The position numbers and the translations under genes were made by a program. A stretch of DNA of 63,652 bases, the filler included, from Octopus bimaculoides (taxonomy: Eukaryota), in the NCBI RefSeq assembly GCF_001194135.2. It is 6 parts of 6 records of this genome, joined end to end, with 100 filler letters (N's around TTAATTAATTAA, not from the genome) between each part and the next. Parts side by side here need not be neighbours in the genome. Positions count along the whole stretch, not along the records: positions 1 to 18,494 come from NC_068987.1; positions 18,595 to 38,986 come from NC_068999.1; positions 39,087 to 55,840 come from NC_068994.1; 3 more parts are not named here. One strand, 5' to 3'. The notes below the pieces were generated by a model. The model worked only from the letters and a program-made list of their open reading frames with translations. It ran no database searches and was not told the DNA's origin. This document shows positions 1 to 49,089 of the stretch, piece after piece (positions within the stretch are counted from its first letter, which is position 1; every line of letters begins with the position of its first letter).

Positions 1-2328
1 GTACTGGAAATTAATAGTTATCGCCAAGCCAACATGGCAGTCCCAAAATTAGGACGAAAGCTGCCGTGAATTAGCTCCAAGAAGCCATCGCCTCTAGCTA
101 GCTATGTGACACACGAAACCTGTGTCCTTTATAACCTTACACATATATAGACATGTGTGCGGGGGCGTGCGTGGGATTACTTAGAAAAACACTGATACGC
201 CAACTGTATACGTTTCAAATACTTGGATATTAACTAAGAATATGGATAATTTAATCTCATTATACAGAGTTTAATACAAGGGTTTGGGGAATATATTAAT
301 AACAAATAAAATAACCAACACAAAATCCATTTTTTAATGAAATGCCTTTATATTGAGACTAGAAACTGAAGTTTGCTACATACGAAGACGATAACGCAGA
401 TAACGCTTATGGTGGTTTTATGATGAAAATAATGATGATGGAAATGAACTTACAGATATCAACCATGATTAGTTAATACAAATTCACCTGAGAAGTTTCG
501 AGGGTTTGCGCAAACAAAGAAATATTGACAATCAATCGATATTGCGCCAATGCTTTTTTGCTTCAGGTCTTAAACGTCTAATTCTGTTCACTAAATCTCT
601 TGAAGACTTCGTTTTTATATTGTTTTTATATTCTCTTGTTTCTTGATTTGCCTACCATTCACATTTCTTTGTTCGTCTGTGTGTATGTATATGTGCGTGT
701 GTACTACCACTTTGTTTGAGACCGGTAAATTTCAAGTCGTTAGAAACGTGATCTACCGGAATAATGTTTGAGAGTTCGTGTCCAAGTCACTAGTATTGTT
801 CTCTAAGACATAAAACTTACGTCTATGTTACCAAAGCTATTTGGCTGTAAATATTTTCTAGTGCAAGGATATATTCATTACTAAAAACGCCATGACTTTA
901 CTTCTGCTTTCTCGCCGTGATGAATTTAAGTATTGTCATAGGTTATTCCAGTTAAATAGATAATACTATTCGTATTATGGTGAAGTCGGAGAGCTGAGAT
1001 TTTAACTCAACTAAAGCCGTCGATTGAACATGAGCTTGAAGATTCGCATTTCTTAGAAACGCTCATTCATATCTGAAGAAAGCAGAGGAATGTCTCTTCG
1101 CTTTCTTCAGAAGCTACGGCCGATACACGTTGGTACTTTTACGTCTAGTAGATATCATTTATTGCTATGACAGCTCTGAAATTCTCTCTCTCTCACTCTC
1201 TCTCTTTCTCTCTCTCTCTCTCTCTCTCTCTCTCTCTCTCTCTNNNNNNNNNNNNNNNNNNNNNNNNNNNNNNNNNNNNNNNNNNNNNNNNNNNNNNNNN
1301 NNNNNNNNNNNNNNNNNNNNNNNNNNNNNNNNNNNNNNNNNNNNNNNNNNNNNNNNNNNNNNNNNNNNNNNNNNNNNNNNNNNNNNNNNNNNNNNNNNNN
1401 NNNNNNNNNNNNNNNNNNNNNNNNNNNNNNNNNNNNNNNNNNNNNNNNNNNNNNNNNNNNNNNNNNNNNNNNNNNNNNNNNNNNNNNNNNNNNNNNNNNN
1501 NNNNNNNNNNNNNNNNNNNNNNNNNNNNNNNNNNNNNNNNNNNNNNNNNNNNNNNNNNNNNNNNNNNNNNNNNNNNNNNNNNNNNNNNNNNNNNNNNNNN
1601 NNNNNNNNNNNNNNNNNNNNNNNNNNNNNNNNNNNNNNNNNNNNNNNNNNNNNNNNNNNNNNNNNNNNNNNNNNNNNNNNNNNNNNNNNNNNNNNNNNNN
1701 NNNNNNNNNNNNNNNNNNNNNNNNNNNNNNNNNNNNNNNNNNNNNNNNNNNNNNATATATATATATATATATATATATATATATATATACATACATACTC
1801 AAACATGCATATACACACGTGTGTGATTATAGTATGGCGTGGCCCTTTTTTCTACTGTCTATTAATGACATCACCTCCCTCCATTAATACCATACTTTCA
1901 TTCTCTCTTTCTCTCCTATCACCTCTGGCCCTATCAACCCCTCTCTCTCCCTTCTCTTTTCTTTCTCTCTCTCTTCTCTCCTCTCAATCCCTATCTCTCC
2001 CTTCTCTCTTCCCTGTCGTTCTCTCCTCTCTCTTTCCCTCCTCTTTCTCCCTCCCCCTCTCTCTCACTTTCTACTCCCCATCACAACTCCCACTCTTCAA
2101 GTTACTTTCCTTCGCGTGGAAGATTCCGTTTCTACGCTATTAATATTTACAATTGTTTTGTTTGTCTTTTTTTCAGTCTCAACTGGAAACCGAAGCTGAA
2201 AACCTGAAGTCTGTGGTCTTATAACAGACATACAACCTATTGTTGCAAAGTTTTTAACTTACTGTTGAAATATTATTGCTGATCTACCGTTTTAAGGGGT
2301 TACCTTAAAACATAACTCAAGCACAAAA

Positions 2329-2525
2329 ATGTTTTCACACATGGAAGGAGTCAACAAATTCTGCCGTCTGACTTATCGAGACTTTTGGAGGTTACTCCTA
2401 TTTCTTCTAACATTTCATATCAGTTTTGTGGATGCAGGTCACAAACAAAAAAACCTTTATACATACCCACAAAATAATTCTGACTGCCCAAGGACATTGG
2501 TTGAAGTAAATGCAGGTCACCTGGG
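2329..2525 (+). CDS. First coding exon of CatSper-epsilon-like gene, encoding a signal peptide
   Basis: Acceptor tttttttcag ending 2176; ATG 2329; hydrophobic FWRLLLFLLTFHISFVDA-G; strong donor GG|gtaagt at 2526 (phase 2). Confidence 0.65.
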
Positions 2526-3197
2526 GTAAGTAGAAAAACAAATTTTGTTGCCTTTCTGTTTGATTGTTTGTTTGTAATGAAAGTATTAGTATATTTCGAA
2601 TGAATGATTAAATATTTGGAAATTGTTATTCTCCATTTTGTATCAATATGCAAACCCTTCATCTTGTGAGTGGGTGATTACTTTGATGATTCAAGAATAC
2701 GAAACTAAATCCTGTATTTCACGTTCAGTCCAGTATATTCGCAAATTTAATTGCGTAAACTTTTCATAAAATCTGTATGAGTTGACACATGGAATTACAG
2801 TTTTCGTTTTTGCTTCCCCGATTTATTACTTTTCAACTAATAAATCTTAAAATCTTGATAGCTTTAAACAGCATATACGAAGTAATTTTCATAGAAGATT
2901 CAAGCATTTTATTGGCCAGTAATTCGTATCAATTGCACCTTCTCTTTATGATTATTGAGGTCATATTCTTCTACAATTCAGTCCAGTAAGTGAGTCACAT
3001 TAGACATGTGTTGAGTCGACTAACCAGCTCTCTATCCATCGAGTTGATGTATTTCTATAAAGAGTCATGCCCAGAAAATTTCCAGTCAGGGATAATTGTT
3101 TTCACACTATCTCATACTATTTCCTAACCTTTTGGAAACTCATAATTATTTTTCTGGGGTTAGCGTAATTCTTAGGAAATACATTCCGTTATCATAG

Positions 3198-46669: not shown

Positions 46670-46839
46670 CCTGGAAAGTATGAAAAATAGCTTATAGCAT
46701 TTCCAATATTTTGGTTTTGGGTCGTTGTTTCAAACAGAGATTTCCAAATATTTTCTTCCGTGATTTCATTCAATTCAATACGTAGCTTTTTTGGTACCCC
46801 AGAGACATTAACCAAATGAGGATGAACGAAGTTGAAATC
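46670..46839 (-). CDS. Open exon DFNFVHPHLVNVSGVPKKLRIELNEITEENIWKSLFETTTQNQNIGNAISYFSYFP of the minus-strand gene
   Basis: Acceptor catag; 56 open codons ending CCAG at the N-gap edge, so the donor is hidden. Confidence 0.45.
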
Positions 46840-49089
46840 CTATGCTAATTTCAAAACGAGGATAAGTTTCACGAAGACAGTAAATATATTTCGTTGTACT
46901 CTTTAATTAGTGCAATCTGTAAAAGATTCGCACGGATTTTCTTGTTCAGCTGTTGCTTTTCTAGAATGGAAAAAAAAAAAAAAATGTTTAGAAGAAAGTT
47001 CCGGGTGAGCAAGGAATTTTGAACGGAAATATGCGGGTTTTTTTTGGCCACATATCATACACAAGTTTATTTTTTACATAGCAAAAGAAATACTTAGATA
47101 ATTTTACTTTGGCATAATATCAGGAAAAAAAATCGAATGATTTGTTTTCTGAAAGATAAAAACACTGATTAACACCTCGTCCTGTGAGATAGCCATCACA
47201 CTTTAAAACGATACGGCAAATTCGCACAGACTGCCTCGCTCTTCCATCAAATTTAATCATGTTGCGAAACATGATGTTGTCATGCTGCATTTGTACAAAT
47301 CTAGTTAACAACAACACTAATATCATTATTATCTATGATGTTACTTAAAATACGTTCAACAACACAGAGATTTTGTTGATGCAAAATACAATGAAAAGAA
47401 ATTAGCATTTCTGGATTTAGACAAACTGTCTTTTGTTTTGCCGTGTTTTTACTCGCGCAATAAATCCTTCACGTTTACTTTTCATGACAGATAAACTATA
47501 TCTACACAGACTCACAAAATCTCTGAAATTCAATCCAGCTTTAAGACATTTATCTTTAACTTTGCAAAGAGTGCCTGAAGTTTCTTGTAGCAATCAAAAT
47601 CTTCAGTTATTGCTTGGATGACGTAAAAATACCTGCGCTGAATCGGTAACATCCGTCGATTCCCAAAGCTATATTTATTGAATGTTATATATTTTCCTTT
47701 TGTATTATTGTACGAAGTTGTCACGTTGCGTTAGGCGCCAATTCATGTCGCCAATCAGTTATGGTTGTTCTTGAAAGGACAAGTTATATGTACATGTCTA
47801 CTTTAACATCATACAACTTCAATGATACATTATCTTTATAAATTCAACAGCGCTAAACGGCTTACCTCTTTCATTAAATAAATACGCCTTTCTAAACGTT
47901 ACTTTGATGTTATCATTCTCGAGTGTAAACACTCTACGTAATGCTTTGAGTAAGAGAGAGAAAGTGGAGAATGAGTGGAGAGAGAGAGAGAGAGTGTGTG
48001 TGTGCGTCGCGTTTTCAATTTTGATTATGCGGTCGTTCAAGGTTCTCGTTCTTGTTTGGTATATTTGTTGTGTTAATGTACGGCATAATGCTGATTCCAC
48101 CACAAAGACCTAGTCCTTGTTGGGATGAGGTGGTTGTGTGCCTCAGTGACCCCAAGGAAGTGCCTCATGTGCTGGACAGATCGAAGGATGGAAACCAACA
48201 CTAATATGGACCATTTCTTCCCAGAAGTAAAAATGGGTTTGCGTATGGCTAACACAAACTCTCATACACACGCACGCACGCACACACCCACGCACACATA
48301 CGCATACGTATACACGACGGGCTTCTTTCAGTTTCTGTTTATCAAATCCACTCACAAGCCTTTGGTCGGTTCGAGGCTATAACAGAACACACTTGGTCAA
48401 GGTGGTGGTTGTGGTGTCTTGTTACCATCTGAAAGAAGATAGTAACTACGATATGGGCAAGTTAAAATTTAGCTCTCCCACCCACCATCACCACCACCAC
48501 CATCACAACCACACTACCACCACCANNNNNNNNNNNNNNNNNNNNNNNNNNNNNNNNNNNNNNNNNNNNNNNNNNNNNNNNNNNNNNNNNNNNNNNNNNN
48601 NNNNNNNNNNNNNNNNNNNNNNNNNNNNNNNNNNNNNNNNNNNNNNNNNNNNNNNNNNNNNNNNNNNNNNNNNNNNNNNNNNNNNNNNNNNNNNNNNNNN
48701 NNNNNNNNNNNNNNNNNNNNNNNNNNNNNNNNNNNNNNNNNNNNNNNNNNNNNNNNNNNNNNNNNNNNNNNNNNNNNNNNNNNNNNNNNNNNNNNNNNNN
48801 NNNNNNNNNNNNNNNNNNNNNNNNNNNNNNNNNNNNNNNNNNNNNNNNNNNNNNNNNNNNNNNNNNNNNNNNNNNNNNNNNNNNNNNNNNNNNNNNNNNN
48901 NNNNNNNNNNNNNNNNNNNNNNNNNNNNNNNNNNNNNNNNNNNNNNNNNNNNNNNNNNNNNNNNNNNNNNNNNNNNNNNNNNNNNNNNNNNNNNNNNNNN
49001 NNNNNNNNNNNNNNNNNNNNNNNNNNNNNNNNNNNNNNNNNNNNNNNNNNNNNNNNNNNNNNNNNNNNNNNNNNNNNNNNNNNNNNNNA

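Follow-up and report, generated by a model that had tools for sequence, protein, structure and literature searches.

Two candidate CatSper auxiliary-subunit pseudogenes, epsilon-like and gamma-like, in the first intron of a DUR3-like gene of Octopus bimaculoides

A stretch of 63,652 nucleotides from Octopus bimaculoides (NCBI RefSeq assembly GCF_001194135.2), in the following called the window, was analyzed with respect to remnants of the genes CATSPERE and CATSPERG, which encode auxiliary subunits of the sperm calcium channel CatSper and are located on different chromosomes in human. The favored reading, to which we assign a probability of roughly 0.55, is that the window harbors two unitary pseudogenes, CATSPERE on the plus strand and CATSPERG on the minus strand, which lie tail to tail in the first intron of a DUR3-like gene. 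All CATSPERE and CATSPERG placements were made only by eye, in comparison with human sequences. A first-pass annotation had already proposed the tail-to-tail pair, and a resemblance was indeed seen at both 3' blocks, while no tool result names CatSper. The nesting in the intron of a living gene had been missed.

Results

The host gene and its first intron

The window consists of parts from 6 different records that were joined with 100-letter filler, and parts that stand side by side are not necessarily neighbors in the genome. It is rich in adenine and thymine (AT-rich) and dense in microsatellites, and 6,963 positions are N (about 11% of the window). The host gene is represented by two features:

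2178..2526, plus strand: exon of a DUR3-like urea-proton symporter (SSF/SLC5 family), identified with phmmer, PF00474 and tblastn
2527..63652, plus strand: intron 1 of this DUR3-like gene, at least 61 kb long and extending past the window edge, with both candidate remnants inside

The coding part of the exon (2329-2526) encodes residues 1-66, and the exon is bordered by an AG acceptor at 2176-2177 and a GTAAGT donor at 2527. A tblastn comparison revealed that 63 of the 66 residues are identical to the DUR3-like proteins of O. vulgaris (CAI9726046.1, CAI9726047.1) and O. sinensis (XP_029639211.1); the likeness comprises residues 1-66, and the difference is that the window carries the exon 2329-2526 alone. 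A HMMER (phmmer) search with 2329-3300 against 1.84 billion representatives yielded a single match, P0001 (E 6e-35), which covered the first 68 residues only. The sources of P0001 (O. vulgaris and O. sinensis) are labelled urea-proton symporter DUR3-like, and the PF00474 match had an E value of 4e-11. Residues 67-824 of P0002 were without a tblastn match at E ≤ 1 anywhere in the window.

It is certain that 2178-2526 is coding exon 1 of an intact, living DUR3-like host gene. The rest of the window is intron 1 of this gene, unless an exon sits within an N gap, and because the window after 2526 is that intron, the candidate remnants are nested in it. The start of the epsilon gene had been annotated at 2177, a position that turned out to be the acceptor of the DUR3-like exon. 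Likewise, this exon was considered as the signal-peptide first exon of CATSPERE and was ruled out, because it belongs to the DUR3-like gene. Another candidate for such an exon, assigned by eye, lies at about 2900-2986.

The exon encodes a hydrophobic stretch (residues 17-37) that resembles a signal peptide or an extra helix, and an Octopus cluster was its sole match at E ≤ 0.001. The hydrophobic N-terminal part may therefore be a lineage-specific extension.

The gamma-like candidate on the minus strand

The minus strand carries about ten motif blocks, distributed from 47.8 to 37.7 kb, in what we take to be the order of human CATSPERG. The following pieces were assigned:

47770-47633 (ending at a GT donor), about 47170-47090, and 46840-46800 (within 46790..47770), minus strand: candidate upstream-most gamma-like pieces
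About 39630-39500 and 39253-39165 (within 39165..39630), minus strand: candidate gamma-like exon pair with an insert between them that resembles a short interspersed element (SINE)
37450..38500, minus strand: candidate gamma-like C-terminal block, with about six motif blocks in order, in three frames and with at least 6 stops

The six motif blocks of the last piece fall within 800 bases, and their spacing is presumably near the expectation from human CATSPERG. Overall, the fit of motif order and spacing to the human sequences appeared, by eye, strong for CATSPERG and moderate for CATSPERE. The minus-strand remnant is thus likely to be gamma. By eye, the N-terminal half of gamma was not found in the window.

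The epsilon-like candidate on the plus strand

On the plus strand, short pieces from about 2.9 to 33.1 kb occur in an order that we assume to be that of human CATSPERE:

About 2900-2986 (with a GTAAGT donor), 3169-3300, 4576-4620, and 5032-5124 (within 2900..5124), plus strand: candidate epsilon-like 5' pieces
19786-19902, 24615-24770, 25225-25400, 27435-27500, and 28583-28740 (within 19690..29320), plus strand: candidate epsilon-like middle pieces
29167-29320, plus strand: doubtful epsilon-like middle piece
32450..33130, plus strand: candidate epsilon-like C-terminal block, with stops and frame changes, and with a hydrophobic stretch followed by a basic tail at its end

The guanine plus cytosine (GC) content of 32450-33130 is 36.1%, compared to 30.7% across the epsilon regions. 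It is fairly probable that the plus-strand remnant is epsilon. The 3' ends of the two genes had been placed at about 33.2 kb and 37.8 kb in the first-pass annotation; the by-eye resemblances end at about 33.15 kb (plus) and at 37.7-37.45 kb (minus), an agreement that applies to the by-eye comparison only.

An alternative is that a single remnant is genuine, most likely the gamma-like one, or that the plus strand carries the paralog CATSPERD or a different decayed gene for a type I membrane protein instead of epsilon. By-eye matches are more numerous and tighter in the gamma block, while the epsilon pieces are short and scattered over 30 kb, the first previously annotated "epsilon" exon belongs to DUR3, and delta and epsilon share a C-terminal domain. 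However, 3169-3300 appears to resemble the N-terminus of epsilon specifically, and we consider this alternative improbable.

The tail-to-tail arrangement of the favored reading involves several discontinuities. Five identical markers of 100 bases each are present at 18495, 38987, 55841, 59928, and 62250; in each of them, a 12-base linker that carries stops in all frames is flanked by 44 N on either side, and they are an assembly feature. The epsilon-like span crosses the marker at 18495, the gamma-like span crosses the one at 38987, and the two 3' blocks are parted by three assembly gaps (33248-35933). Because of these gaps, the adjacency of epsilon and gamma rests on scaffolding.

Lesions, copy number and a second species

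Sequencing reads were used to verify the lesions over 36000-38980, i.e., on the gamma side. Run X3 yielded one contig across these 2981 bases, with 0 substitutions, 1 gap and flat depth. In addition, 11 DNA runs from 3 studies contained 0.97-0.99 of the words of 36000-38980; all 11 are flagged as possible sources, although only one of the studies can be the source. The stops and frameshifts in this region are real, and assembly error, which had been named beforehand as a possible cause, is ruled out for the gamma side by run X3. Because the depth is flat, the region is single-copy, and an origin of the gamma 3' block from a high-copy transposon was rejected. A blastn self-comparison of four candidate blocks revealed no second match within the window. 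It is certain that the gamma 3' block is dead, single-copy DNA. The region 36000-38980 has fixed stops and frameshifts, no frame conservation and a single copy, as does a unitary pseudogene, and as would any non-coding DNA.

An ortholog from organism B, a second species, spans 36353-38888 and differs by 227 substitutions (9.0%) and 46 gap letters. The events listed include 12 deletions in organism B, with 12 further indel rows outside the listing, and 8 of the 12 listed deletions, all one base long, fall within 37450-38500. Under the assumption of neutral flanks and equal rates, 3.1 deletions are expected in this block if it is intact in organism B (P 0.004), and 5.0 if both lineages are neutral (P 0.07). 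The gamma-like block has probably been non-coding in both lineages since before the split from organism B, and the loss probably predates this split, because organism B carries the 8 one-base deletions. These indels fit a pseudogene and a plain intron alike. Deleting the letters that are absent from organism B opened no frame, in a comparison that left out the insertions of organism B and 184 of the 224 substitutions. The loss had been described as fairly recent, a view that calls for some qualification, given that the gamma-like block was probably neutral before the split at about 9% divergence and is too decayed for Pfam.

The 40 of 224 substitutions that are listed, possibly selectively, are confined to the first 865 bases (4.6%). 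If these 40 are complete for 36353-37261, the remaining 184 correspond to a divergence of about 11% in the gamma-like block (37261-38888), and the spacer between the remnants would be more conserved than the block (also 1 versus 8 deletions listed). The spacer is strongly T-skewed (-0.17).

At the RNA level, no run was listed as containing words of 36000-38980. In run X15, of unspecified tissue and read to about 6%, 5 partial reads aligned to repeats but 0 to unique DNA, and this outcome was counted neither way. Run X12 contained 0.71 of the words by index, but short repeat pieces alone could be aligned; this remained unexplained and the run was not used.

These results bear on the possibility that both genes are intact and expressed in testis, and that the apparent lesions stem from assembly errors or mis-called exons. 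It is contradicted by the agreement of run X3 over 2981 bases except one gap, by the one-base indels of organism B throughout the block, by stop-free runs of background length, and by the lack of a match to 3169-3300 in a collection that includes O. vulgaris and O. sinensis proteins. For gamma this explanation is largely refuted, and its overall probability is close to negligible.

Unbiased tests and homology searches

There is no intact reading frame in the epsilon or the gamma regions. The annotated frame disruption was thus confirmed in this respect, and the lesions were verified with reads within 36000-38980, on the gamma side. The longest stop-free runs on the proposed and the opposite strand were 91 versus 98 amino acids in the epsilon regions and 70 versus 77 amino acids in the gamma regions. 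The stop-free stretches contain 1.00 (plus) versus 0.97 (minus) sequons per 100 codons in the epsilon regions, and 1.24 (minus) versus 1.15 (plus) in the gamma regions, so that the description of the two genes as sequon-rich is not supported as long as no pieces are selected. Splice-site counts showed no excess on the proposed strands, and the strand skew did not flip between the epsilon-like and the gamma-like gene. In hand-picked pieces an excess was seen, i.e., 14 sequons in 781 codons (1.79 versus 0.79 per 100 codons) and a GC content of 35.4% versus 30.9%, but this excess is biased, because stop-free, protein-looking pieces were chosen. In the candidate blocks the GC content is somewhat higher than in other unique DNA.

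Several results weigh against the CatSper assignment and are given together here. First, the unbiased tests (stop-free runs, sequons, splice sites, and skew) do not favor the proposed strands. Second, no CatSper family was found with Pfam in 416 segments and windows (77, 136, 13, 90, 81, and 19), which comprised 303 stop-free segments and 113 further windows, most of them read with X at stops, and which gave scattered weak unrelated matches. Searches of the PDB with the candidate readings returned no CatSper chain and one chance match (factor IX, E 1.1), and searches of the ESM atlas gave no usable match and no CatSper. Word-based searches for longer proteins returned 1, 20, and 166 candidates, of which not one reached E ≤ 10, and also the full HMMER search with 2329-3300 returned the DUR3-like protein alone and no CatSper. 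Third, a glycine run that we take to be conserved in gamma is absent. Fourth, the same epsilon motifs were fitted at two places (about 29.2/31.7 kb and 32.5/32.8 kb) as the by-eye placement shifted; because placements changed and two sites fitted the same motifs, by-eye CatSper matches evidently arise easily. Fifth, both readers of the window worked from the same picture of the CatSper sequences.

Further searches were negative as well. A three-frame profile gave no CatSper match, with a method that the simulation described below marks as weak, and the window had no match in metagenome contigs or in Rfam. The piece 3169-3300, searched without a word index, had no protein match at E ≤ 0.001 among the 1.84 billion representatives, including O. 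vulgaris and O. sinensis proteins, which is a weak point against an intact CATSPERE in close relatives.

The power of such searches was estimated by a simulation of 10 decayed genes (20% of positions substituted, one frameshift per about 33 codons) with targets that were 45-60% identical. In 5 of 10 cases the highest score of any single frame was 14-21 bits, in the other 5 there was no score at all, and the three-frame profile scored in 0 of 10. Because simulated decay leaves these searches without power, the blank CatSper searches carry little weight.

The strongest competing explanation follows from these data. The region might be an ordinary single-copy DUR3-like intron, and the CatSper likeness might have arisen because two readers with the same picture of CatSper looked for patterns in AT-rich six-frame translations. 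Every CatSper search was blank, the unbiased strand tests were flat, and neutral indels fit equally well. In contrast, blanks are expected at such decay (nothing in 5 of 10 simulated genes, 0 of 10 with the three-frame profile), and two neighbors that resemble two members of one complex, each correctly ordered, would be hard to obtain by chance. We regard a plain intron as unlikely, albeit with appreciable weight, and retain the pair of CATSPERE and CATSPERG pseudogenes as the best explanation.

Repeats and other sequences

Two regions with transposon fragments interrupt the candidate spans:

10869..11990, plus strand: fragment of a retrotransposon without long terminal repeats (non-LTR) inside the epsilon-like span, with RVT_1 at 10948-11409 (E 1.3e-10)
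40400..46300, minus strand: transposon fragments and microsatellites between gamma-like pieces, with RVT_1 at 42179-42316 (E 0.006, below the curated cut-off) and tandem repeats

Non-LTR retrotransposon fragments were also seen at 12700-18500 and 42000-45500 (both minus strand), and several repeated non-LTR C-terminal fragments are followed by ATT or ACT microsatellites. Remnants of mariner/Tc1-like transposases are present on the minus strand at 19950-20260 (HTH_48, E 0.0013, below cut-off) and, by eye only, at 59300-59930. The region 62400-63652 is unique and CpG-poor, and it contains a stop-free run of 127 codons at 62576-62956 (plus strand) with no Pfam match.

Discussion

From these data we infer the CatSper identity of the remnants, a joint loss, its cause, and its timing before the split from organism B. 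If the favored reading is correct, sperm of the octopus lineage would no longer have needed the CatSper complex, and selection on both genes would have ended. The epsilon and gamma genes would then have gathered stops, single-base indels, retrotransposons, and a mariner-like piece. The remnants would make no protein and have no present function, and would persist only by being carried along in a host intron that splicing removes.

By eye, the candidates appear to share with intact CATSPERE and CATSPERG the motif order, a C-terminal domain containing Cys, a hydrophobic stretch, and a short basic tail. In contrast to the intact genes in mammals and in invertebrates with a retained CatSper, there is no open frame and no Pfam or PDB match, and the two candidates are adjacent in the window, unlike the genes in human.

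According to four papers, CatSper is missing from molluscs, which retain its regulators sNHE and sAC (PMC6660944, PMC5553355, PMC11222122, PMC13674862). Among titles and selected passages of the literature, no title on cephalopod CatSper was found. In pH gradients, the sperm of squid perform a turn that can be triggered by caged calcium, and the word "CatSper" does not occur in the passages of the paper that describes this (PMC5636881). A doubtful extension of the pseudogene reading is that CatSper was still functional in the octopus lineage after the parting from squids, given that a fossil gene might stay readable for roughly 100-200 million years (our own estimate). Molluscan loss would then consist of several late losses, and DUR3 intron 1 or its immediate neighborhood might still harbor an intact pair in squid, cuttlefish, vampire squid, or Nautilus.

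If true, late survival of CatSper would offer a candidate pH-gated calcium channel for the pH-taxis of squid sperm, the epsilon-gamma fossil would date one CatSper loss to late cephalopod history, and DUR3 intron 1 would be a fixed address to inspect in other cephalopods. Dead CatSper genes are already known in birds, and because of this, and because a fossil has no function, the value of the present case lies in the lead, which is still unproven.

Cai and Clapham 2008 (PMC2572835) described degenerate CatSper fragments from two birds, chicken and zebra finch, and mentioned, with data not shown, a fragment of CatSper4 from Lottia. Like the octopus candidates, these are short translatable pieces of lost CatSper genes beside working genes. 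They represent pore subunits and beta, and the bird fragments were aligned to intact orthologs. Unlike them, the octopus candidates were compared by eye, would represent the auxiliary subunits epsilon and gamma, and lie in the intron of a host gene.

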